Below, piece after piece: positions 25 to 46,760 of a DNA stretch of 64,000 bases. Below the pieces are notes generated by a model. The model was not told the DNA's origin and did no database searches. It saw nothing but the letters and a program-made list of their open reading frames with translations. The first letter of the stretch is position 1; every line of letters starts with the position of its first letter. Source of the DNA: a bacterium (GTDB taxonomy: Bacteria; Myxococcota_A; UBA9160; SZUA-336); contig JBGQIB010000001.1 of NCBI GenBank assembly GCA_041498295.1, positions 2,428-66,427 on the forward strand. The letters are read 5' to 3'. The translations under genes and the position numbers were made by a program.

Positions 25-1695
25 GTGACTGCAAAGCTGAAGGGCGCCGCGGCGAACGACGAGCTCGAGGAGCGCCTCGAGGTCGAGCTCGAATGCAGCG
101 AATGCGGCGCGAACTTCGTCGCGGGCGTTTGGGATCACTCGTTCCGCTGCACCTACTGCGGCTCGGTGCTGGCCTGCACGCGGGCGCTCGGCGAGGAGGT
201 GTTCGCGGTCTCCGACGGTGGCTCGAGCCCCTCCGACGCCCTCGCGCTCGTGATCCGCAACGAGACCGAGGGCTACCGCAACATGCTGGTCGGACGCGCG
301 AAGGGCGAGAACGAGGGCGCGGGCGAGATCTCGGCAGCGGCGATCGATGTGCAGGTCGAGGCGCTGCGCGCGAAGCTCGAACGAGAGCTCGTACTCATCG
401 AGGCCGGCGACTTCCTCGTGCCGTACGAGCTGCACGAGCGCACGGTGTTCCAGGGCATCCTGGGCCGGCGCGGCGCCGCGAAGGAGGCGTTCGTGCAGAG
501 CCTCCGCACCGAGGACGTCCAGCGCCGCTACGACCCCGCGCTCTACAACCTGCGCGACCGCGGCCTGAAGCTGCGCTTCGCGCGGGTCGCGCTGCTGCGA
601 CAAGCACACCTGGCGCGCGTCGGGGAGCGCGCCCTCGAAGCGGTCGGCGGGCGCGCGGAAGACGACGATCCCGCCGACCGCACGCGCGTGCGGGTCGACC
701 CGGAGCTCGAGATCATCGGCCGCCTGGAGGGTGTCTGCGCCGAGCGGCGGCTGCGCGTCTGGAAGCAGATGGGCTTCGCGCGCATTCAGCGCGGCGCCGG
801 GCTCGAGGACCATCTGATCGATCACCAGTTCGGGACGATCGCCGGTCGGCTCGAGCCCGAGGAGACCGAGGTCTACCGCGCGCTCGCGCCGCGCCGGCTC
901 GACGAGGTGCTGACGAAGCCGGTGCTGCGCGCGATCGCGTCCGAGTGCCCGAACTGTGGCGTCGAGCTCCAGCTCTCGCCGCGCGCGAAGCTCGCGTTCT
1001 GCGCGACCTGCGCGACCGCGATTCACGTCTCGGCAGACGGGCTGGCCGCCGTCGACTACGAGCTCGCGGCGACGCCGGAGCGCGACGGAGCCGACGCATT
1101 CATCGGCTATCCATTCTGGGCCTTCCCTGCGCGCATACTCGCCGGCGGCCGCGAGTTCCACCGGCTCTGGGATTGGCTCGAGCAAGTGAGTCCACAGCCC
1201 GCGGCGGTGCGCTACCGCGAGACTGATCCCGCGGAGGCGCGCCTGTTCGTGCCCGCGCGCGAGGTCTTCGGCACGCGCGAGCTCGACGATGCCTTCGCCG
1301 CGCTCGCGGCGGTCGCCACCTGGCGCCAACCCGTCACGCAAGTCACTCGTGCGCAGCCGAGCGACGGCGTGCGCCTGCTCGACGTCGAGCTCGAGCCGGA
1401 GCGAGCGGCGCCACTCGCCAAGTTCGCGCTCGTCGCGCTGCACGATCGCCAGAGCACGCGCGCATTGAACGGGCTGTCGTTCAAGACGTGGGTCGCGGAC
1501 GCGCGGCTCTCGCTCGGCGTGCCCCGCCTCGTCGTGTTGCCGCTGCCGCTGCACGCGGACCAGTGGCTGCCCTTGGGTCGCGCGGCGCAGTTCGATCTGC
1601 GCAATGCACCGGTGTATCCGAGGCCGGTGGCGCGCGGGGTGCTCGAGGACTCGGGCCAGCTTGCGCGGCGCTCGAAGCCGTTCTCGCTCCGCTGA
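25..1695 (+). CDS. Double zinc-ribbon protein (two CxxC...CxxC modules), YdjG-like, first gene of a Zn-ribbon/SPFH operon. GTG start at 25; upstream 24 nt are in-frame with no stop, so the gene may be 5'-partial.
   Basis: ORF track. Motifs CSECGANF...CTYCG (aa 24-46) and CPNCGVEL...CATCATA (aa ~313-333). A GAAGGAG RBS precedes the next gene, so co-operonic with downstream genes. Confidence 0.6.
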   Translation: MTAKLKGAAANDELEERLEVELECSECGANFVAGVWDHSFRCTYCGSVLACTRALGEEVFAVSDGGSSPSDALALVIRNETEGYRNMLVGRAKGENEGAGEISAAAIDVQVEALRAKLERELVLIEAGDFLVPYELHERTVFQGILGRRGAAKEAFVQSLRTEDVQRRYDPALYNLRDRGLKLRFARVALLRQAHLARVGERALEAVGGRAEDDDPADRTRVRVDPELEIIGRLEGVCAERRLRVWKQMGFARIQRGAGLEDHLIDHQFGTIAGRLEPEETEVYRALAPRRLDEVLTKPVLRAIASECPNCGVELQLSPRAKLAFCATCATAIHVSADGLAAVDYELAATPERDGADAFIGYPFWAFPARILAGGREFHRLWDWLEQVSPQPAAVRYRETDPAEARLFVPAREVFGTRELDDAFAALAAVATWRQPVTQVTRAQPSDGVRLLDVELEPERAAPLAKFALVALHDRQSTRALNGLSFKTWVADARLSLGVPRLVVLPLPLHADQWLPLGRAAQFDLRNAPVYPRPVARGVLEDSGQLARRSKPFSLR

Positions 1696-1785
1696 TCCTC
1701 CGCTCAAGCCGCTCGCGCGACCGGCCGAATCGACCAGGGATGCGCGCCTGGCGTTCATGACGCGCGCGGGCGAGAAGGAGCGACG

Positions 1786-2274
1786 ATGGCCAAGCTACGA
1801 GACACGCTGCGCGCGGAGCGCGGCAGCCTCGAACGCCTGATCGCACGCGTGCCGGGCTTCCGCGGCTACCTGGGTCGCGAGCAGCGGCGCGAGGCCGACA
1901 AGCTCCTGCGCGATCACGGCGCAACGCGCCTGGAGCGCGTCGTGCATGACTTGAGCGGCGTGATCGCGAAGGCTTCGCTCGAGCAGATCGGCGAGCTCCA
2001 GGAGCTCGTCACCCAGGTCGAGAAGCTGCGCGCGGAGCTCCGCTTCGCAGACCGCGGTTACTCCGGCTTTTTTGACGAGGTGAAGCTCGACGGCGACGCG
2101 GCGCTCGACGCGGTGTACGCGCAGGACGAGCGCATCGTCCTGCAAGTGGAGGAGGTCGCGGCGCAAGCGGCCGAGGTGGACTTTTCGCCGGCGAAGCTGC
2201 GCGGCAGCGTCAAACGGCTCGGGCTCGCGCTCGCCGATCGGCGCAACGCGATCCTCGGCCTGGGATCGAGGTAG
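1786..2274 (+). CDS. Hypothetical 162-aa coiled-coil-like protein, middle gene of the Zn-ribbon/SPFH operon.
   Basis: ATG at 1786 preceded by GAAGGAG; stop 4 nt before gene 3 start. No recognisable family from sequence. Confidence 0.5.
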   Translation: MAKLRDTLRAERGSLERLIARVPGFRGYLGREQRREADKLLRDHGATRLERVVHDLSGVIAKASLEQIGELQELVTQVEKLRAELRFADRGYSGFFDEVKLDGDAALDAVYAQDERIVLQVEEVAAQAAEVDFSPAKLRGSVKRLGLALADRRNAILGLGSR

Positions 2275-2276
2275 TC

Positions 2277-3314
2277 ATGTCGCAGTTCGTCGAAGTCATC
2301 GAGTGCCTCGACCGTTCAGCCGAGACGCTCGTCTCGCGCTTTCCCGAGCAGGGCTCGGCGGAGATCAAGCTCGGGGCGCAGCTCGTCGTGCGCGACAGCC
2401 AGGCCGCGATCTTCGTGCGCGACGGCCGCGCGCTCGACACCTTTGGCGCGGGCCGACACACGCTCACGACCCTGAACGTGCCGCTCCTCTCGAAGGCGCT
2501 GTCGCTGCCGACCGGGTTCAAGAGCCCCTTCCGCGCCGAGGTGTACTTCCTCAACCTGCGCAGCTTCGTGAACCAGAAGTGGGGCACGATGGAGCCGATC
2601 CTGTTCCGCGACAGCGAGCTCGACATGGTTCGGCTGCGCGCCTTCGGGATCTACGCGTACCGCATTTCGAACCCGCAGGTGTTCCTGCACTCGCTCGTCG
2701 GCACGGTGAGTGAGTTCACGACCGAGGCCGTGGCCGACTTCTTCCGCGGGCTCATCGTGACTCAGACGGCGGACTTTCTCGGCGCGCACCTGCAGAGCGT
2801 GCTCGACCTGGCGCAGCATTACGTCGCGCTCTCGGCCGGCATCCAGGCGAAGGTGCTCGCCGACTTCGAGAAGTACGGCGTGACGATCTCGGACTTCAAG
2901 ATCCTGTCGATCTCGCCGCCGGACCACGTGCAGGAGATGATCGACAAGCGCGGCGGCATGGCGGCCGTCGGCTCGCTCGATTCGTTCGTTCGCTACCAAG
3001 CGGCGAACGCCCTCGAGAAGTCGGCTGCGAGCGGAGCCGGAGGAGGCGGCCTCGCGGCCGCGGGCGTCGGCGCCGGCGCGGGCCTCGGACTCGGCGCGGG
3101 CATGGCGGGCATCGTGAGCCAGGCGCTCGGCGCCAAGACGGCCGCGAGTCACTGTGCCGCCTGCGGCGCGGGCGTCGCGAGCGAGGCGAATTTCTGCTCG
3201 AGCTGCGGTGCGAACCAACGTCCCGCGGCGCTGACCTGCCCGAGCTGCAGTGCGCAGAACGCCTCCGCCTCGCGCTTCTGCTCGAGCTGCGGGACTCCGC
3301 TCAACCCCTCCTGA
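2277..3314 (+). CDS. SPFH/band-7 (stomatin-prohibitin-flotillin) domain protein with C-terminal tandem zinc ribbons (COG4260 / YdjI-like).
   Basis: N-terminal SPFH-like region. Gly/Ala-rich linker. C-terminus CAACGAGVASEANFCSSCG and CPSCSAQNASASRFCSSCG (two CxxC-N10-12-CxxC ribbons). Confidence 0.8.
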   Translation: MSQFVEVIECLDRSAETLVSRFPEQGSAEIKLGAQLVVRDSQAAIFVRDGRALDTFGAGRHTLTTLNVPLLSKALSLPTGFKSPFRAEVYFLNLRSFVNQKWGTMEPILFRDSELDMVRLRAFGIYAYRISNPQVFLHSLVGTVSEFTTEAVADFFRGLIVTQTADFLGAHLQSVLDLAQHYVALSAGIQAKVLADFEKYGVTISDFKILSISPPDHVQEMIDKRGGMAAVGSLDSFVRYQAANALEKSAASGAGGGGLAAAGVGAGAGLGLGAGMAGIVSQALGAKTAASHCAACGAGVASEANFCSSCGANQRPAALTCPSCSAQNASASRFCSSCGTPLNPS

Positions 3315-4160: not shown

Positions 4161-6833
4161 CTAGTGGCGAAGACCGGTATCGAAGAGCAGGTGCACGATA
4201 TCGGGGTGACCGTGCGAGGTCGCTAGCGTAGCGGCGGACAGGCCGTCGGCGGTGCGCGCGTTCGGGTCTGCGCCGCGCTGCAGGAGCAACTGCACGATGT
4301 CGCTGTGGCCAGCGGCGGACGCGTGCAGCAGCGGGGTCCAGCCTTGATCGTCCCGCGCGTCGGCTTGCGCGCCGGCAGCGAGCAGCGCTCGCAGGTACGA
4401 GGTTTGTCCGTCGCGAGCGGCCTTCGCGAGCGCTTGGTTGTTCTCACGCCGGCGGCGCTCGCGGTCGCCGCCGCCCGGCAGCACCGACGCCATCATCAGC
4501 GCCGTGCGTCCATCCTGTGATTTCACGTTCGGGTCGGCGCCCTTCTCGAGCAGCAGGAGCGCAATCGGGCCATGGCCCGCGGCCGACGCGAGCAACAGCG
4601 GCGTCCAGCCGGCGCGATCGCGCACGTTCGGGTTGGCGCCCTTTTCGAGCAAGACCCGAGCGGCGTCGAGATGGCCCTCGCGCACGGCGCGGATCAGGGA
4701 GTTCTGTCCGTCCTCGGCGCTCGCTTCGAGCTTGGCGCCGGCCGCGAGCAGCGCGAGCAGAGCGCGCACCCGGCCCTTCCACGCGGCGTACATCAGCGCG
4801 GTCTGGCCCGTCGCGGAGCGCGCGTCGACCTCCGCGCCGCCGGCCAGCAGCGCGTTCACGACGATGGTGCGGCCCTTCATCGAGGCAAGCATCAGCGGCG
4901 TTTGGCCGCCGCGGGCGCGGCTGTTCGCGTCGGCGCCCGCCTTCAGCAGGGCGAGCGCGACGTCGGTGTGACCCTCTTGAGAGGCGAGCATGAGCGCGGA
5001 CATGCCCTTGCGATCACGCGCGTTCGGGTCGGCGCCCGCGTGCAGCAGCGAGTCGACGGAGTCGAGCTGACCCATCTGTGCGGCGCGAGTCAGTGCGATG
5101 CGCCCGGGCTCGCCGCGCACCCCGAGGCTCGGGTCGTGCTCGACGAGTAGCTCGACGATGCGCACGTGTCCCTCGCGCGCGGCGCGTGCCAGCGCGCTCT
5201 GCCCGTCGCCGGCGCCGATGCGCGGGTCCGCGCCGCCCTCGAGCAGGATGCGGGTGATCGGCTCGTAGCCGTTCGAGGCAGCGACCTGCAGCGGCGTCGT
5301 GCCGACGTTCGTCCTTGCGTTCACGTCCGCGCCTGCGCGCACGAGCATGCGCACGACGTCGGTGCGACCCTCATTTGCGGCGCGGAACAGCGCTGTCTGG
5401 CCCGCGTTGGTGGTGTCGTCGAGGCTGGCGCCCGCGGCGATCAGCGCGCGAACTGACTCGAGCTCGCCGGCGCGCGCGGCCTCGCCGAGTGCCGACGAAC
5501 CGCTGCGGCTGTGCGCGTCGACGTCGACGCCCTTCTCGACCATCGCGCTCAGCAGCTTCTCGTCACCCTTCTCCGCGGCATCGACGAACAAGTCGTTCGC
5601 GACGCGCAGCTCGGGCAGGAGAAATGCCGGATCGGCGCGCGACAGATCGGCGCCCGCGCGCCGCAGCTCGTCGACGACGTCGCGATGGCCCTCGCGCGCG
5701 GCCACCTCGAGTGGCGTCTCGCCCGACGCGTCGGACGCGTCGATCGACGCACCGCTCTCGAGCAGCTTGCGCACGGTGTCACCGCGCCCCTTTTCGGCGG
5801 CCAACAGCAGGGCGGTCTTTCCCTCGCTGGAGCGCGCGTTCACGTCCGCGCCCTTCAGGAGGAGCGCGGAGATCAACGCGCCCGTCGGCGTGCGCGCGGA
5901 GCCTGCGTCCCCGCCCGCGCCGACGTCGGCAAGAGAGGGCTCGTCGGGGCGCAGGCTCGCGAGCAGGCTCACGACGTCGTCGCGCTTCTCGGCCTTCGCA
6001 TAGTCGAGCGCGCTGCGCCCGGCGGCGTCGACGGCGTCGACCTTCGCACCGTCGGCAAGCAGCGCACCGATGGTGTATGTGCGGCCGGCGGAAGCCGCGT
6101 ACATCAAGGCGGTCTCGCCGTCGCGCGCGCGCGCGTCGGCCGTCGCCCCGGCGCGGATCAGGGCGTCTACGACGCCGGTGCGGCCTTTGATGGCCGCGAG
6201 CATGACGGGCGTCTGTCCGAGCGCCGTGGTCCCGTTCGGATCCGCCTTCTGTTGCAACAGCTCGCGCACGATCGCGAGCCGGCCTTCAGCGGCGGCGAAG
6301 TGAAGCGCGCTCAGGCCCGCGGCGTTGCGCGCTGTGACGCTCGCGCCGGCGTCGAGCAGGAGCTTGACGATCGGCGCGTAACCGCGCGCGCTCGCCTGCA
6401 TGAGCGGCGTGAAGCCCTGTTCGTCCGCGAGATCCACGCGCGCGTGGTGCTTGAGCAAGAGCGCAGCGACTTCGCGGGAGCCCTGTGCGCTCGCGTGCAG
6501 GAGCGCGGTCCAGCCGCTCGTGTCGCGCGCGTCTGCCACGGCGCCGCGCGCCAGAAAGAGATCGACGAGCTCGTCAGATCCGAGCTGCGCGCCGATCGCG
6601 AGCGGTGTCGCACCGTCGGCGGCCGTGCACTCGAGCGACGCGCCCGCGGCGAGCGCTGCGCTCGCCGCGTCGACATCTCGCTCGCGGGTCGCGGCGAGCA
6701 ACCGCGCGTCGTTTCCGTGAGCGCTCTCGACCGCGTCGGCCGAGCTCGTGTGCGGTTTGCGGACACCTTCAGGAGAAACTGTGGCCCCGGTGGCTGCCGC
6801 CAGTAGGAGCGCGGAGGCGAGCAGCCGGCGCAC
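4161..6833 (-). CDS. Secreted ankyrin-repeat protein, 890 aa, ~24 ANK repeats. GTG start with AGAGAGGA RBS.
   Basis: N-terminal signal peptide MRRLLASALLLAAATGATV. Dozens of G-TPL--A---GH--IV--LL--GA repeats. 15 nt downstream of the PEP-CTERM gene. Confidence 0.85.
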   Translation of the reverse strand: MRRLLASALLLAAATGATVSPEGVRKPHTSSADAVESAHGNDARLLAATRERDVDAASAALAAGASLECTAADGATPLAIGAQLGSDELVDLFLARGAVADARDTSGWTALLHASAQGSREVAALLLKHHARVDLADEQGFTPLMQASARGYAPIVKLLLDAGASVTARNAAGLSALHFAAAEGRLAIVRELLQQKADPNGTTALGQTPVMLAAIKGRTGVVDALIRAGATADARARDGETALMYAASAGRTYTIGALLADGAKVDAVDAAGRSALDYAKAEKRDDVVSLLASLRPDEPSLADVGAGGDAGSARTPTGALISALLLKGADVNARSSEGKTALLLAAEKGRGDTVRKLLESGASIDASDASGETPLEVAAREGHRDVVDELRRAGADLSRADPAFLLPELRVANDLFVDAAEKGDEKLLSAMVEKGVDVDAHSRSGSSALGEAARAGELESVRALIAAGASLDDTTNAGQTALFRAANEGRTDVVRMLVRAGADVNARTNVGTTPLQVAASNGYEPITRILLEGGADPRIGAGDGQSALARAAREGHVRIVELLVEHDPSLGVRGEPGRIALTRAAQMGQLDSVDSLLHAGADPNARDRKGMSALMLASQEGHTDVALALLKAGADANSRARGGQTPLMLASMKGRTIVVNALLAGGAEVDARSATGQTALMYAAWKGRVRALLALLAAGAKLEASAEDGQNSLIRAVREGHLDAARVLLEKGANPNVRDRAGWTPLLLASAAGHGPIALLLLEKGADPNVKSQDGRTALMMASVLPGGGDRERRRRENNQALAKAARDGQTSYLRALLAAGAQADARDDQGWTPLLHASAAGHSDIVQLLLQRGADPNARTADGLSAATLATSHGHPDIVHLLFDTGLRH

Positions 6834-6848
6834 GGTGATCCTCTCTTT

Positions 6849-7598
6849 TTAGGTATTTCGAACGCGCCGCCCGCTGAGCACAGCGAGCGCCGAGAAGCCG
6901 AGGAGCCATGCAATCGCGGGCTCTGGTACGGCGACGATGTTCGAAACACTCACGATGAAATCGTTGAAGCCGCCGTCGTTGCCGGTCTCGAAGGCGAGGA
7001 GATATTGATTCGTGAGAAACAGGCCGGGTGACTGGCCCGGGAACTTCAAGGTCGTCGTGCCGTTCCCTGCGAACACCTTGACCCGAACCTCGCCGCCGTT
7101 GAGGTCCGCTTCGGTGAACAGATACACAGGCGAGTCACTGTGCGCCGACGCGACCTTGGCGAAGAAGCCGAACGGGCCGTCGAAGCCCGACGCCTTCGCC
7201 TTCGGCGTGAGACCGCCGCGAATCGTGATCGAGCCGTCGTCGCTGAAGCTCACGCTCGCGACATCGTCCGGCGACATGCTGTCGGAGAGCAGGAACGCGT
7301 GGTTCCCCGAATCGTCGGCGGGGTACATGCCGAACCAGAGCGCGTCGGACCGCCCCGTGTAGTCGACCACGACGTTGGCGCTCATCGGCCCCGAGGCATT
7401 GTCCCAGAGGTCGATGTTGGCCGGCGCGCCGGCGTCGATCGCCGGGCCCGACACGACGAGGCCGTCGAGAATTTGCTGCAGGCTCGGAGCGGCCGGGGTC
7501 GGCTTGGGACACCGCGCTGGCTTGGTAATCAGATGTGCGCCCGCGGTTTGGGCGAACAGCACGAGACACACGAGTGCCGGGAGAACCCGCTTGATCAT
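6849..7598 (-). CDS. PEP-CTERM sorting-domain surface protein.
   Basis: Signal peptide MIKRVLPALVCLVLFAQTAGA. C-terminal VPEPAIAWLLGFSALAVLSGRRVRNT (PEP motif + TM + basic tail). Start trimmed to the internal ATG at residue 38 of the ORF. Confidence 0.75.
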   Translation of the reverse strand: MIKRVLPALVCLVLFAQTAGAHLITKPARCPKPTPAAPSLQQILDGLVVSGPAIDAGAPANIDLWDNASGPMSANVVVDYTGRSDALWFGMYPADDSGNHAFLLSDSMSPDDVASVSFSDDGSITIRGGLTPKAKASGFDGPFGFFAKVASAHSDSPVYLFTEADLNGGEVRVKVFAGNGTTTLKFPGQSPGLFLTNQYLLAFETGNDGGFNDFIVSVSNIVAVPEPAIAWLLGFSALAVLSGRRVRNT

Positions 7599-7645
7599 CG
7601 ATATTCGGCCCTGCCGGTCTCGAGTTCCTGACCGGTCTGTCAGCG

Positions 7646-7680
7646 TGGGGCATTCTAAGTGACGTGGGTGATGCCCCACA
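7646..7680. promoter_or_regulatory. Perfect 9-bp inverted repeat GTGGGGCAT-N17-ATGCCCCAC in the Nif3 / PEP-CTERM intergenic region. Candidate operator or RNA hairpin.
   Basis: Seen directly: gtggggcattctaagtgacgtgggtgatgccccac, about 50-80 nt upstream of the PEP-CTERM start codon. Confidence 0.3.
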
Positions 7681-7778
7681 AGCCATAAGTACCCACCGTT
7701 GTACCACAATTACGTTGCTTTCCGAGCCATTCCGTGACGCAAGACATGCGCATCGAGCTGCGAAGGTCGGGTACCACG

Positions 7779-42024: not shown

Positions 42025-43210
42025 GGAGCTTGAGGCGGAGTGCGTTCAGCTTGATGAAGCCCGTGGCGTCGCGCTGGTCGTAGCTGCCACCGGCCTCGAA
42101 CGTCGCGATGTCCTCGCGGTACAGCGAGTGCGGCGAGCGGCGGCCGCGCACCATGACGGCGCCCTTGAACAGGCGCATGCGCACCTCGCCGCTCACGTGC
42201 TCCTGACTCTTGTCGATCGCCGCGCGCAGAAATTCCATCTCGGGCGAGAACCAGAAGCCGGCATAGATGAGTTGCGCGATGCGGGGAATCAGTCGGTCGC
42301 GCTCGAGCATGACTTCGCGGTCGAGCGTGATCGACTCGAGCGCGCGGTGCGCGCCGTGCAGCACGGTTCCACCCGGTGTCTCGTAGACGCCGCGCGACTT
42401 CATGCCCACGGCGCGATCCTCGACGAGATCCACGCGACCGACGCCGTGCTCCGCCGCGAGCTCGTTCAAGCGAGTCAGTAACTCGACCGGTCCGAGCGGC
42501 CGCCCGTCGACCTTCACCGGCACCCCGCGCTCGAACTCGATCTGGAGCTCGCTCGGCTGGTCCGGCGCGTCGGCGACGGCGTTCGTCCACTCGAACATCT
42601 CCTCGTCGGGCGCGCGCCACGGATCCTCGAGAATCCCGCCCTCGTAACTGATGTGGTAGATGTTCCGATCCAGCGAGTAAGGCTTGCGCAGGGTCGCGTC
42701 GACGGGAATGTCGTGCTTGCGCGCGTAGGCCATGAGCTCGGTGCGGCCGCCCATGTCCCAGGTGCGCCAGGGCGCGATGATCTGGAGATCCGGCGCGAGC
42801 GCGTGGAAGGCGAGCTCGAAGCGCATCTGGTCGTTGCCCTTGCCCGTGCAGCCGTGCGCGACCGCGTCCGCGCCGACTTGGCGCGCGATCCGCACCTGCT
42901 CCTTCGCGAGCACCGGCCGCGCGAGAGACGTGCCGAGCAGATAGCTGCCCTCGTAGACCGCGTTCGCGCTGATCGCCGGGAACACGAAGTCGCGCACGAA
43001 CTCCTCGCGCAGGTCCGAGATCACACAGTCGACGGCGCCGGTCGCGAGCGCCTTCTTGTGCACGGCGTCGAGGTCCTCGCCCTGCCCCACGTTGCCGACG
43101 TAGCAAACCACTTCCGCCGCGTACGTCTCGATCAGCCAGCGCAGGATCACCGAAGTGTCGAGCCCGCCGCTGTACGCCAACACGATCCGCTTGATGTCGC
43201 CCTTGCTCAT
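42017..43210 (-). CDS. argG: Argininosuccinate synthase.
   Basis: MSKGDIKRIVLAYSGGLDTS..., typical ArgG throughout. Upstream ORF extension lies within a repeat element and is rejected. Confidence 0.95.
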   Translation of the reverse strand: MSKGDIKRIVLAYSGGLDTSVILRWLIETYAAEVVCYVGNVGQGEDLDAVHKKALATGAVDCVISDLREEFVRDFVFPAISANAVYEGSYLLGTSLARPVLAKEQVRIARQVGADAVAHGCTGKGNDQMRFELAFHALAPDLQIIAPWRTWDMGGRTELMAYARKHDIPVDATLRKPYSLDRNIYHISYEGGILEDPWRAPDEEMFEWTNAVADAPDQPSELQIEFERGVPVKVDGRPLGPVELLTRLNELAAEHGVGRVDLVEDRAVGMKSRGVYETPGGTVLHGAHRALESITLDREVMLERDRLIPRIAQLIYAGFWFSPEMEFLRAAIDKSQEHVSGEVRMRLFKGAVMVRGRRSPHSLYREDIATFEAGGSYDQRDATGFIKLNALRLKLRP

Positions 43211-43254
43211 GAACGGCATCATAGCGAGCACGCCGTTCCGAGGTAGGGAGCAAG

Positions 43255-43372
43255 CCGCGGGCGCGCGGCGCGCAGCGAGCCGCAGGCGAGCGAAGAGCGG
43301 GTGGCGCGGCTTAGCCCGACACCGGCGCGCGGGCCGGTGTCCCGCGGGAGCGGGCCCCGCTAAGTCACTCGA
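43255..43372 (-). repeat. Stop-codon-abutting repeat, full copy starting at the TGA of the DUF4388 gene. Hairpin GACACCGGC-N-GCCGGTGTC.
   Basis: GCGCAGCGAGCCGCAGGCGAGCGAAGAGCGGGTGG...CCCCGCTAAG-TCA(stop). Confidence 0.6.
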
Positions 43373-44114
43373 CGACTCCCTCGCGGACGAGCTTGGCAAT
43401 GATCTCGAGCGTGCGGACGCGGTCGGCGGTGGAGACGGAGAGGAGGTCGGCGATCGACATGCGGCCGTCGATCTGGGAGAGCATGAAGCCTTCGTCCGGC
43501 TGCAGGCGCAGCTTCATGACCTGCTGAGTCGTGACCTTCAGGCGCAGCACGTGGCCCTGGTCGCCGAGCTCCTTGGCCCACGCCTGCGCTCGCTCGGTGC
43601 GCACGAGCTGCAGGTAGCCCTGCACGTCGAGGCGGTCGGGCTCGTCCTTCGCGAGCTTTCGCAGCTCCGTGAAGGCGTCGTCGTAGCGCCCTTCCTTGTA
43701 CGCCTGGAGCGCGGACTGAATCTGCGTGTCCGGGTCGTCGTCCGCGTCGAACTCGATCACCGGGCCGCTCTTCGGTGTGTCGTCCTCGTCGGTGACCGGG
43801 CGCGCGCCCCTACCGGCGGGCTTCGCGGACGCGGCCTTCGGCGCGGGCTTCGGGACAGAGCCCTTCGGCGTCGAGCTCTTGGCGGGCGCGCTCGGCGGCT
43901 TCGCGGCCTTCGGCGGCGCGCCCTTCTTCTTGCTCGCGTTCCCGCCCTGCTCCTCGTAAGCGGTCTCGAGATAGTCGTGCACGGCCTGGTTCTCGGGGTC
44001 GAGCGCGCGCGCCTGCTCCCAGCACGAGATGGCGGCCTCGAGGTCGCCCAACCCGTAGTGATTCAGGCCGCGCTTGAGCAGCCGAGTGACTTCAGCGTGT
44101 CTCGCGTCGTCCAC
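43365..44114 (-). CDS. TPR-like N-terminus plus DUF4388-like C-terminal domain protein with a Lys/Pro/Ala-rich linker.
   Basis: C-terminal GHVLRLKVTTQQVMKLRLQPDEGFMLSQIDGRMSIADLL resembles the DUF4388 (PatA-N-like) domain common in Myxococcota. Directly downstream of the Hsp70 gene (4-nt gap). Confidence 0.55.
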   Translation of the reverse strand: MDDARHAEVTRLLKRGLNHYGLGDLEAAISCWEQARALDPENQAVHDYLETAYEEQGGNASKKKGAPPKAAKPPSAPAKSSTPKGSVPKPAPKAASAKPAGRGARPVTDEDDTPKSGPVIEFDADDDPDTQIQSALQAYKEGRYDDAFTELRKLAKDEPDRLDVQGYLQLVRTERAQAWAKELGDQGHVLRLKVTTQQVMKLRLQPDEGFMLSQIDGRMSIADLLSVSTADRVRTLEIIAKLVREGVVE

Positions 44115-44117
44115 GAC

Positions 44118-45695
44118 TCAGCCTTTGACGGCGACCTCGTCGCCCTGCTGGTACATATTCGCGAGGCGCTCGATTTCTTCCGGCGTCAGCGTGCCGCGCG
44201 GATTCACCTGGATCGAATGAGCGCGGCCGGTCGCGAGATCGCGCGCCGAGACCGACACGATGCCGTTCGCATCGATGTCGAACGTGACCTCGATCTCCGG
44301 CTGGCCCTTCGGTCCGGGCGGAATGCCGGCGAGCACGAATTCGCCGAGCAGATCGTTGTCGTCCGCGCGCTCGCTCTCGCCCTGCAGCACGCGGATCTTC
44401 ACCGCGGTCTGATTGTCACGCGTGGTGGTGAAGATCTCCTGGCGCGATGTCGGCACCGTGGTGTTGCGCTCGATGAGCTTCGCGAAGTGACCGCCGAAGG
44501 TCGCGATGCCGAGCGACAGCGGAGTCACATCGACGAGGAGCGGGCCCTCCTTCTCCTCGCTGAGCATCGCCGCCTGGATCGCGGCGCCGACCGCGACGAC
44601 TTCGTCGGGATTCACGCCCTTGTGCGGGGTCTTCCCGAAGAACGACGCGACCGTCTTCTGCACCATCGGCATGCGTGTTTGACCGCCGACCAGCAGCACC
44701 TGGTCGATCTGCTTCACGGTGAGCTTCGCGTCGTCGAGAGCGCGCTGCACGATCGGCTGAGTGCGGAGGACGAGCTCGCCGACGAGCTCCTCGAGTTTCT
44801 CGCGCGTGAGCAGCACGCTCATGTGCAGCGCGTTCTCTTCCGCGTCCGCCGCGATGAACGGCAGATTGATCTCGGTCGAGCCGAGCTGCGAGAGATCGCA
44901 CTTCGCCTTTTCCGAGGCATCCTTCAGCCGCTGCAGCGCCATCGTGTCGCCGCGCAGCGAGAGCTTTTCCTTCTCCTGGAAGGTCGCGAGCAGGTGATCG
45001 ACGATCTTGCGGTCGAAGTCCTCGCCGCCGAGCTGTGTGTCGCCGGAGGTCGCGAGCACCTCGATCACGCCCTTGCCCATTTGCAGGATCGAGATGTCGA
45101 ACGTGCCGCCGCCGAGGTCGTAGACCGCGATGATCTCGGTCTTGTCACGGCCGAAGCCGTAGGCGAGCGCCGCCGCCGTCGGCTCGTTGATGATGCGCAA
45201 GAGCTCGAGGCCCGCGATGCGCCCGGCGTCGCGCGTCGTCTGGCGCTGCGCGTCGTTGAAGTAGGCGGGCACTGTGATGACGGCCTGCTGCACGGTGTCT
45301 CCGAGATACTCCTCGGCGACGCGCTTCATCTCGCGCAGCACGATGCCCGAGATCTCGGGGATCGTGTACACGCGCCCCGCGACGCGCACGCGCACGTCGT
45401 TGTTCGGGCCCTGGACCAGCTCGTACGGCAGCAGCTCCTTGAACTTGGAGACGTCCTGCGAATCGAAGCTGCGTCCGATCAAGCGCTTCGCCGCATAGAC
45501 CGTGTTCTTCGCGTTCGTGACGGCCTGGCGCTTGGCGAGGTGACCCACCAGGCGCTTGCCCTCCTCCGTGACGGCGAAGATCGACGGCGTCGTCTTGTAC
45601 CCGCCCGTGTTGGGAATCACGACGGGCTGGCCATCCTCGAGGATGGCCACGCAGGAGTTCGTGGTTCCCAGATCGATTCCGATTACTCGACTCAT
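44118..45695 (-). CDS. Hsp70-family chaperone lacking the C-terminal helical lid (525 aa, HscC-like).
   Basis: [25 protein letters not shown] motifs. Substrate-binding beta domain present. Ends ~110 aa short of canonical DnaK. Confidence 0.9.
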
Positions 45696-45716
45696 TTCGT
45701 TCCCTTCGCGGCGCAG

Positions 45717-45732
45717 GACACTCTAGAGTGTC
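45717..45732. promoter_or_regulatory. Perfect 16-bp palindrome GACACTCTAGAGTGTC overlapping the J-protein stop codon, 25 nt upstream of the Hsp70 start.
   Basis: Seen directly. The self-complementary sequence spans the TAG stop. Confidence 0.4.
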
Positions 45733-46760
45733 TGGAGCGCCTGGCGGATCTCCTTGTCCATCGGATCGAGCTCCCACGCGCGCTGCAGGTGCTTGCGCGC
45801 CTTTTGTGAGTCGCCGGCCTTGCGGTAGACTTCGCCGGCGAGCTTACGGAACGGAATGCTCTCTTCGTCCAGCGCGACGGCGCGCTCCGCGTAGAGCGCC
45901 GCCTTCTCGAGACCGCCCTCGAGCCCGGCGAGTAACTCGGCGAGCTTTTGCGCGAGCTCCGCGTCGGTCGGAGAGAGCTGCGCGGCCTCCTCGAGCAGCT
46001 CGGCGGCGCCCGCGCGGTCGCCGGAGAGCAGCATCTCGGCCTTGCGGCGCACCGCGGCCGCGCGTTCCGCGTTCGCGCGCGGGAGGATCTCGGCGAGCTC
46101 GTCGTGGTAGCGCTTTTCGCGCGGGTCGAACGCGAGCGCGAGCTCGACGAGCTGCGCGGCTCGCGCCCAGTCACCGTTCTGTTTCTGCAGCATCGCGGCG
46201 TCGAATTGCTTGCTCGCGCGCGCGCGGCTCTGTTCGAGCTGGCGCTGCAGCGAGATGAGCATCAGGCCGGGTGACTTGAGACCGAGTCGGCCGCGCAGCG
46301 ACGCACCGCGGCCGGAGGTGGGCGCGCGTGACAAGGGCACGGCAGGCGGCGGGATCGTGACCGGACGTGACTCGGTGGTCGTCGGCGAGAGCGAGCGATC
46401 GTACGCGCCGCGCAGCTTCGGATCGCGGAGCACGTCGTGCGCGGCGACGATGCGCTTGTACACCTCGTTCAACAGGTCCGCGTACGGACCGAGCTCCTTC
46501 TTGAAGTAGCGATCGGGGTGGTAGGTCTTCGAGCGCTGGAAGAAGGCGTCGCGAATGTCGGCGGACTCGGCTTCGCGCGGGACGCCGAGCACGTCGTAGT
46601 ACGTGAGCGTGGCGAGTGAGCGCGCGAACTCGCGGACATCGCGCTGAAACGCTTCGGGCAAATCCACGCGAGCGCCCGCGTTCGCTGCCTCGTTCGAGGC
46701 CGCTTCGCCGTCGGTGCTCGAACTCATCCCGCCTCCACGCCGATGCGCAATTCGCCCCAC
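45723..46760 (-). CDS. J-domain (DnaJ-like) co-chaperone with C-terminal TPR repeats.
   Basis: YYDVLGVPREAESADIRDAFFQRSKTYHPDR (HPD motif). TPR-like helices in the C-terminal 200 aa. Start may be the internal ATG (MSSSTDG). Confidence 0.8.
   Translation of the reverse strand: MGRIAHRRGGGMSSSTDGEAASNEAANAGARVDLPEAFQRDVREFARSLATLTYYDVLGVPREAESADIRDAFFQRSKTYHPDRYFKKELGPYADLLNEVYKRIVAAHDVLRDPKLRGAYDRSLSPTTTESRPVTIPPPAVPLSRAPTSGRGASLRGRLGLKSPGLMLISLQRQLEQSRARASKQFDAAMLQKQNGDWARAAQLVELALAFDPREKRYHDELAEILPRANAERAAAVRRKAEMLLSGDRAGAAELLEEAAQLSPTDAELAQKLAELLAGLEGGLEKAALYAERAVALDEESIPFRKLAGEVYRKAGDSQKARKHLQRAWELDPMDKEIRQALQTL

Follow-up and report, generated by a model that had tools for sequence, protein, structure and literature searches.

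Analysis of a 64,000-nucleotide stretch of DNA (the window) from a bacterium of the lineage Myxococcota_A; UBA9160; SZUA-336 (assembly GCA_041498295.1, contig JBGQIB010000001.1, positions 2,428 to 66,427 of the forward strand) revealed, at its very start, a real, conserved chromosomal three-gene operon that is vertically inherited and encodes a protein with two separated zinc ribbons (gene 1), a small protein (gene 2) and an SPFH protein (gene 3). With moderate confidence, we read the locus as a soluble, PspA-less relative of the SamGHI (YdjGHI) SPFH module of Bacillus, which would work through an SPFH oligomer (gene 3), a partner protein (gene 2) and a tail-docked gene 1 protein. The same three families recur in the same order across loci, an arrangement far beyond chance. 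The features of the operon are as follows, with lengths in amino acids (aa) and nucleotides (nt):

25-1695, plus strand: gene 1, a 556-aa soluble protein with a GTG start and two predicted tandem YdjG-like modules (zinc ribbon plus alpha/beta domain).
67-867, plus strand: N-terminal module of gene 1 (aa 15-281), homologous to the YdjG/SamG core, with zinc ribbon 1 (nt 94-159), a VPYE motif and the PepSY-like closing motif LIDHQFGTIAG.
916-1692, plus strand: C-terminal module of gene 1 (aa 298-556), a presumed second, more divergent copy, with zinc ribbon 2 (nt 946-1011) and a YPFW motif.
1774-1780, plus strand: Shine-Dalgarno sequence GAAGGAG of gene 2, read from the sequence, 5 nt before the ATG.
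1786-2274, plus strand: gene 2, a 162-aa predicted four-helix-bundle protein, the constant upstream partner of the Band_7_1 clade, with conserved loops PGFRGY (nt 1852-1869) and GYSGFF (nt 2056-2073).
2268-2271, plus strand: Shine-Dalgarno sequence GAGG of gene 3, within the 3' end of gene 2, 5 nt before the ATG.
2277-3314, plus strand: gene 3, a 345-aa YdjI/SamI-type SPFH protein.
2334-2963, plus strand: SPFH (Band_7_1) domain of gene 3 (aa 20-229, Pfam envelope).
3012-3140, plus strand: uncharged Gly/Ala-rich linker of gene 3 (aa 246-288) with the glycine-zipper motif GVGAGAG, read from the sequence.
3153-3290, plus strand: two C-terminal zinc ribbons of gene 3 (aa 293-310 and 321-338), each CxxC-x10-CxxC (Pfam Zn_Ribbon_1, DZR, Zn_ribbon_3).

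A first, sequence-only reading of this DNA had proposed a three-gene operon with Shine-Dalgarno sites and gaps of 2-90 nt, and its coordinates, both ribosome-binding sites and both gaps were borne out, as was its description of the cysteine patterns of genes 1 and 3. Genes 1 and 2 are separated by 90 nt and genes 2 and 3 by only 2 nt, which suggests translational coupling of the latter pair. Scans for promoter and terminator consensus sequences gave no match, such a scan being uninformative at 70% guanine-cytosine (GC) content, and the GC content at the operon is typical of the surrounding region.

Comparison of gene 3 with Pfam revealed a match to Band_7_1 (PF13421) far above threshold (E 1.2e-62, 211.8 bits vs a cutoff of 24), covering profile positions 2-210 of 211 and upholding its earlier description as an SPFH protein with two C-terminal zinc ribbons (COG4260 type). 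For a direct comparison with the Bacillus system, the pspA-ydjG-ydjH-ydjI operon was recovered from a metagenome (L060) with a degenerate pattern built on a published ydjG primer. BLASTP aligned gene 3 with the YdjI of this operon at 24.5% identity over 322 aa (E 2e-29), and both proteins show the same part order of SPFH domain, low-complexity linker and zinc ribbon. No transmembrane (TM) segment was found in gene 3, with a Kyte-Doolittle 19-residue maximum of 1.48 that lies under the usual TM threshold, and 31/40 related SPFH proteins carry a GxGxGxG motif after the SPFH domain. Sequence searches of the PDB gave only zinc-ribbon noise for all three proteins, and gene 3 had no sequence match to solved SPFH chains at E<=1. 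By its sequence, gene 3 is a YdjI/SamI-type SPFH protein without a membrane anchor of its own.

Gene 1 carries the ribbons C24-x2-C27-x14-C42-x2-C45 and C308-x2-C311-x14-C326-x2-C329, and none of these eight cysteines varies among 26 close and 27 distant homologues. No Pfam family matched it above threshold, the zinc-ribbon matches being generic and sub-threshold, and no TM segment was found (Kyte-Doolittle maximum 1.37, located inside zinc ribbon 2). An AlphaFold2 (AF2) model was obtained with a predicted local distance difference test score (pLDDT) of 85.9 and a predicted template modelling score (pTM) of 0.84, and a Foldseek search of the PDB returned nothing significant (best E 0.34). The relation to YdjG emerged through a 254-aa protein of Bathyarchaeia, which hhalign aligned with YdjG (98.2%, E 5e-14), with the N-terminal half of the gene 1 family (residues 15-281, 228 columns; 98.0%, E 2e-13) and with its C-terminal half (residues 298-476; 86-90%, E 2e-6 to 5e-6). 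Profile-profile comparison of a joint YdjG and Bathyarchaeia alignment with the N-terminal half (229 columns) yielded 97.9% and E 3.4e-13, while hmmsearch with a hidden Markov model of the diverse gene 1 family retrieved the archaeal YdjG-like proteins at E 1e-11 to 3e-7. Motifs shared by YdjG and gene 1 comprise the ribbon, YlPFW as the counterpart of vPY/YPFW, and a PepSY-like closing hairpin in which PvW.vsY...DG.TG.V.G on the YdjG side aligns with RvW......iD.QFGtiAG in gene 1. Since both halves align with the archaeal YdjG-like intermediate, gene 1 appears to be a tandem of two YdjG-like modules, that is, a duplicated YdjG/SamG-like protein in which each module is predicted to consist of a zinc ribbon followed by a PepSY/cystatin-like alpha/beta domain. 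The similarity to PepSY/YpeB/YpmB domains is weak, and whereas those domains are usually extracytoplasmic, the gene 1 domain is fused to a zinc ribbon and predicted to be cytosolic.

The position of gene 1 at the window edge had raised the suspicion that it extends further upstream or forms the tail of a larger gene. Six near-identical sibling contigs (L001-L006, obtained by exact-sequence look-up of gene 3; L001 is ~99% identical) extend the window upstream, and in L001 an ATG lies 54 codons further upstream in an open frame. The resulting 610-aa model was rejected because the extension is of low complexity and not conserved, because only 38 bp would remain to a divergent alpha/beta-hydrolase gene, and because orthologues have their ATG or GTG start codon at the position equivalent to GTG 25 (M/V-T-A/D/E...). 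As orthologue starts coincide with GTG 25, the suspicion was dropped, and the GTG at 25 is likely the start of gene 1. Close homologues form 51 clusters, mostly of 538-557 aa, in which conservation begins at about residue 10. The wider family comprises 444 representatives at 50%-identity clustering (E<=1e-3), nearly all of 450-600 aa and with the same two ribbons ~270-290 residues apart; most members have no TM helices, and a few carry N-terminal TM helices, as do the distant relatives P0230, P0240, P0245, P0253 and P0314, or extra TFIIB-type ribbons. Single-module relatives, e.g. P0293 and P0251, are similar to the C-terminal half of gene 1 only. A third homologue search with the diverse gene 1 alignment as query retrieved the close family only and added nothing. 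Within the family, a subgroup of 833-872 aa (P0181, P0184, P0186, P0189, P0190) bears an N-terminal extension of ~300 aa that matches nothing in Pfam; the single contig examined (L053:1589-4090) has no SPFH gene beside the family member.

Gene 2 had been described as a small coiled-coil protein, for which the AF2 model substitutes a predicted compact, all-helical four-helix bundle (pLDDT 84.4, pTM 0.81). It has no Pfam match at E<=0.1 and no TM segment (Kyte-Doolittle maximum 0.62). Its homologues form 120 clusters, nearly all of 155-180 aa, in which P23, Y28, R34, R35, D38, R42, G91, Y92 and R152 are invariant and sit in two motifs, PGFRGY..RE.RR.AD and DRGYSGFF. The sole library match was a sub-threshold one to the NCBIfam family LIMLP_15305 of Leptospira (28 bits vs a cutoff of 210), which a transcriptome paper on peroxide lists in a table, without information on its function. 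A relation to YdjH was rejected, as gene 2 has neither a TPM domain nor a TM helix and hhalign of YdjH against the gene 2 family gave 0.6%; YdjH itself matches TPM_phosphatase (PF04536) at E 3e-23 and has TM helices. An assignment as a PspA/ESCRT-III-like protein was likewise discarded (hhalign 0.3%), and a metagenomic protein of 257 aa (P0161) that resembled a natural fusion of gene 2 and SPFH proved to be a frameshifted assembly artefact and is not Rosetta-stone evidence. The gene 2 family is undescribed, and gene 2 holds the position of YdjH with no homology to it.

A neighbourhood scan with a single-protein query and one genome per species located gene 2 relatives at 42 loci in Myxococcota, Chloroflexota (mostly Anaerolineae) and Bathyarchaeia, of which the 40 with downstream DNA present were treated as complete. 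The gene directly downstream of the gene 2 homologue, on the same strand, encodes a Band_7_1 protein in 40/40 complete loci, and independent metagenomic look-ups agree with this adjacency. The two genes are 2-3 nt apart in Myxococcota; their spacing ranges from -4 to 5 nt among Bathyarchaeia and from 10 to 90 nt among Chloroflexota. The pair of gene 2 and SPFH genes is the most conserved unit, present in Bacteria and Archaea (three phyla), and had gone unrecognised in the sequence-only reading. All three families stand in the same order in 7/7 Myxococcota species loci, and this order is also kept in metagenomic relatives at 44-50% identity. In Bathyarchaeia, a single-module YdjG-like gene lies upstream in 9/9 loci; there (L032-L052, e.g. 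L033:6782-7546), this gene encodes an anchor-less YdjG homologue of 254 aa and is followed by the gene 2 homologue and then by the gene for a Band_7_1 protein bearing two zinc ribbons. These loci represent a SamG/SamI-like pair in Archaea, without TM anchor or PspA. An unrelated contig (L057) shows the order gene 2-like (E 8e-30), Band_7_1 with several ribbons, gene 1-like (E 4e-22), while Chloroflexota loci mostly hold the pair alone, beside unrelated housekeeping genes. At one Chloroflexota-type locus (L007:5393-5911), the pair lies behind the gene for a 172-aa protein that has TM helices at its N-terminus and a zinc ribbon at its C-terminus, and this gene in turn follows one for a DUF2207 membrane protein; these neighbours may form a different, membrane-bound partner set.

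These data bear on the simplest alternative, namely that the three genes merely adjoin each other and are not functionally coupled. The 90-nt gap between genes 1 and 2 could indeed hold a promoter, and distant gene 1 relatives often stand alone. With gene 2 and the SPFH gene adjacent at 40/40 loci in two domains of life, the triad kept in two gene orders and genes 2 and 3 coupled at 2 nt, we give this alternative hardly any credence, and for genes 2 and 3 it is already refuted.

The C-terminal tail of the SPFH protein varies among lineages together with the neighbouring gene. Two zinc ribbons and an adjacent YdjG-like gene occur in Myxococcota (7/7) and Bathyarchaeia (8/8), several ribbons and such a gene in L057, and one ribbon and such a gene in the case of Bacillus YdjI, whereas 25/27 Chloroflexota-type loci combine a SHOCT, GYF_2, HTH_17 or Q/P-rich tail with no adjacent YdjG-like gene. 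The association between zinc-ribbon tail and YdjG-like gene is suggestive, the lineages being few and non-independent and giving no statistical proof. The Chloroflexota Band_7_1 proteins ending in GYF_2, SHOCT or HTH_17 were found in L017-L051 (e.g. L019:8551-9633, L051:8554-9546, L031:8544-9632), and within this SPFH clade the C-terminal tail behaves as a module that can be exchanged.

The nature of these tails also raises an alternative in which the locus is a nucleic-acid-linked or regulatory module, whose TFIIB-like zinc ribbons and HTH_17 tails would bind DNA or RNA while the SPFH scaffold sequesters or releases a regulator. YdjG and extended relatives of gene 1 do have TFIIB-type zinc ribbons, an HTH_17 tail is present on some Chloroflexota SPFH proteins, and loss of SamI leads to global transcriptional changes in Bacillus (bioRxiv 10.64898/2026.02.06.704340). 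However, the zinc-ribbon matches of gene 1 are generic and below Pfam thresholds, the three proteins contain no DNA-binding domain, and most of the alternative tails (SHOCT, GYF_2) serve protein binding or oligomerisation, which makes such a role improbable in our estimation.

The likeness to the Bacillus ydjG-ydjH-ydjI module that had been pointed out earlier thus held for two of the three genes: gene 1 corresponds to YdjG and gene 3 to YdjI, while gene 2 is not related to YdjH. As in the sigma-W operon pspA-ydjGHI, the last gene encodes an SPFH protein of the Band_7_1 type that has a low-complexity linker, a C-terminal zinc ribbon and no anchor of its own, the first partner is a zinc-ribbon plus PepSY/NTF2-like protein, and a third, small protein is encoded in between. 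YdjG resembles gene 1 in its N-terminal C4 zinc ribbon and in the cytoplasmic alpha/beta domain (NTF2/YpeB-like) that follows, with its PFW and DG.TG.V.G motifs. In contrast, YdjG has two adjacent N-terminal ribbons and one module, whereas gene 1 has two modules, each headed by one ribbon, and YdjG bears a C-terminal TM anchor (ending ...AAWFSGIAGGTFLALKLVSLMMGGGF) that gene 1 does not have. YdjH is a TM protein with a TPM domain, whereas the middle gene here encodes a soluble predicted four-helix bundle, and the YdjI tail has one ribbon as opposed to two in gene 3. Finally, the Bacillus operon includes pspA while none lies in or near the operon described here, and the hosts belong to Bacillota and Myxococcota, respectively. 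In Bacillus, YdjI has been reported to be soluble, to form foci and higher-order assemblies, to require YdjG/YdjH for its localisation, to recruit PspA and to restrain YdjG/YdjH (SamGH) signalling (PMC8581546; bioRxiv 10.64898/2026.02.06.704340).

The missing pspA had been noted from the window, and the observation extends upstream: phmmer with Bacillus PspA found nothing at E<=1 in the 64-kb window and a further 8 kb upstream. This is central to the main competing explanation, according to which the locus is a functional equivalent of Bacillus PspA-SamGHI that binds peripherally to the inner membrane, e.g. through the glycine zipper of gene 3, and recruits PspA/IM30 encoded elsewhere under envelope stress. 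Such a role would agree with the homology of genes 1 and 3 to YdjG and YdjI, with the uncharged 40-residue G/A/L/M segment that contains GxGxGxG in 31/40 relatives and nearly reaches the hydrophobicity of membrane insertion (Kyte-Doolittle 1.48), with the N-terminal TM helices of some distant gene 1 relatives, and with a survey of the phage shock protein (PSP) response stating that such modules might act with PspA encoded elsewhere (PMC11237479). It is opposed by the negative PspA search, by the lack of a TM helix and of a TPM protein, and by a cluster analysis in which a pspA-like conserved neighbour appeared in 0 of ~50 related loci. We therefore regard a PspA-dependent function at the membrane as rather unlikely, albeit worth keeping in view, and continue with the soluble relative as the preferred assignment.

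Two further groups of SPFH systems were considered for comparison. In SPFH-NfeD operons (E. coli QmcA-YbbJ, archaeal stomatin-STOPP), an SPFH protein likewise always stands beside one small dedicated partner in a tightly coupled arrangement found in Bacteria and Archaea. Unlike in those operons, the partner here is encoded upstream, is predicted to be all-helical and has no OB fold, protease domain or TM segments, and the SPFH protein, a member of the divergent Band_7_1 family, has no membrane anchor; no Pfam match to NfeD was obtained for the operon proteins. The cage-forming HflK/C, flotillin and stomatin proteins share with gene 3 the succession of an SPFH domain and a C-terminal region. 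In these proteins, the C-terminal region closes the oligomeric cage, and they are the source of the assembly model used here. Gene 3 differs from them in having no TM or hairpin anchor and in a tail that ends in zinc ribbons.

On this basis, the soluble SamGHI relative may be pictured as follows. By analogy with other SPFH proteins and with SamI as reported, gene 3 would self-assemble into a ring- or cage-like oligomer. Gene 2 would serve as its constant partner, supplied stoichiometrically by co-translation, and may bind or regulate the SPFH body via its two invariant aromatic-glycine loops. The flexible linker would display the zinc-ribbon tail of gene 3, onto which the YdjG-like gene 1 protein could dock, acting as an adaptor or sensor toward a client. 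The Chloroflexota cores of SPFH and gene 2 with SHOCT, GYF_2 or HTH_17 tails let the tail look like an exchangeable targeting part.

Several observations weigh against this reading. All three proteins lack TM helices, and the membrane association by which the Bacillus system is defined finds no support here. The direct alignment of YdjG with gene 1 is weak (85-88%) and restricted to the zinc ribbon and closing motif, and the homology of the two therefore depends on the intermediate sequence, while the C-terminal module of gene 1 is backed at 86-90% only. In 3/4 informative contigs, distant gene 1 relatives do not lie beside SPFH genes, which implies that gene 1 proteins may have an SPFH-independent role. 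Two Chloroflexota loci (L034, L047) possess zinc-ribbon tails with no YdjG-like gene found nearby, the co-variation of tail and partner derives from only 4-5 independent lineages, and the numbers of modules and ribbons do not correspond one-to-one across lineages. Oligomerisation and all of the contacts are inferred.

The genomic surroundings of the operon are those of a vertically inherited core locus and not of a defence island. Upstream, the sibling contigs encode the divergent alpha/beta hydrolase, a luciferase-like oxidoreductase, an enoyl-CoA hydratase, a major facilitator superfamily (MFS) transporter and a carboxyl transferase. The flanks are syntenic in relatives at 44-50% identity; on the upstream side they comprise the genes for the carboxyl transferase and the MFS transporter, on the downstream side those for Peripla_BP_2, a ~900-aa ankyrin-repeat protein, NIF3 and thiamine pyrophosphate/pyruvate:ferredoxin oxidoreductase (TPP/PFOR) proteins. 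The sequence-only reading had brought up defence islands. SPFH and zinc-ribbon proteins are found in some candidate defence systems, and the zinc ribbon of gene 1 did give weak PADLOC matches to HEC-08 and Cas12f (E ~1e-3, best 5.6e-4). These span only ~30-50 zinc-ribbon residues, and none was obtained for genes 2 and 3. No PHROG matched below E 2.6e-3, with none at all for gene 3, and neither a relative on viral contigs nor an effector domain was found. With the flanks (carboxyl transferase, MFS, Peripla_BP_2, ankyrin protein, NIF3) in conserved housekeeping synteny down to 44% identity and a GC content like that of the surroundings, an anti-phage defence or mobile-island module is largely refuted and very improbable.

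Other parts of the window showed the following. The ankyrin-repeat protein, encoded at 4161-6833 (minus strand), has 890 aa that are almost all ankyrin repeats (17 or more) and a hydrophobic N-terminus; its gene keeps this place, two genes beyond the operon, in every Myxococcota relative examined. At 6849-7709 (minus strand), a 286-aa open reading frame (ORF), of 248-249 aa in related contigs, shows a C-terminal similarity to PEP-CTERM that is weak and sub-threshold (E 0.026). The GC content falls from ~0.70 to 0.64 across 30-40 kb, where the segment 30183-40371 (minus strand) holds a 1786-aa ORF with no Pfam match, a 1058-aa protein with an MMPL-type C-terminal part and a 526-aa BNR/YCF48-like plus OmpA protein. 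The ORF at 43155-45809 (plus strand) strongly matches PF10712 'NAD-GH' (E 3e-126), a family that we take to be largely the antisense translation of high-GC genes, and the overlapping ORF at 44118-45695 (minus strand) may be the real gene instead.

SPFH proteins are universal, yet their mechanisms are known for a few membrane-anchored families only, and the YdjI/SamI (Band_7_1) type has been studied in Bacillus only, where it depends on two membrane proteins and PspA. The present analysis shows that the YdjG-YdjI partnership occurs far beyond Bacillota, without membrane anchors and without a local PspA, and that the protein accompanying this SPFH clade most faithfully, in Bacteria as in Archaea, is a different, uncharacterised small one, gene 2. 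A broader proposal, which we put forward tentatively and consider possible, though short of probable, is that gene 2 and the Band_7_1 SPFH protein together make up a two-component scaffold that is ancient and independent of the membrane and occurs in Bacteria (Myxococcota, Chloroflexota, others) and Archaea (Bathyarchaeia). Gene 2 would then be an unrecognised class of dedicated SPFH partners with a status similar to that of NfeD, the exchangeable tail would select the client, with zinc-ribbon tails recruiting YdjG-like proteins, and the Bacillus PspA-SamGHI system would be one membrane-tethered derivative of a wider, soluble system. Predictions that follow are a complex of gene 2 with the SPFH protein, a contact between the zinc-ribbon tail and a YdjG module, and a change of client upon swapping of the tail. 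The locus described here offers a simpler, all-soluble system, which may be used to obtain the first structure of a Band_7_1 assembly.

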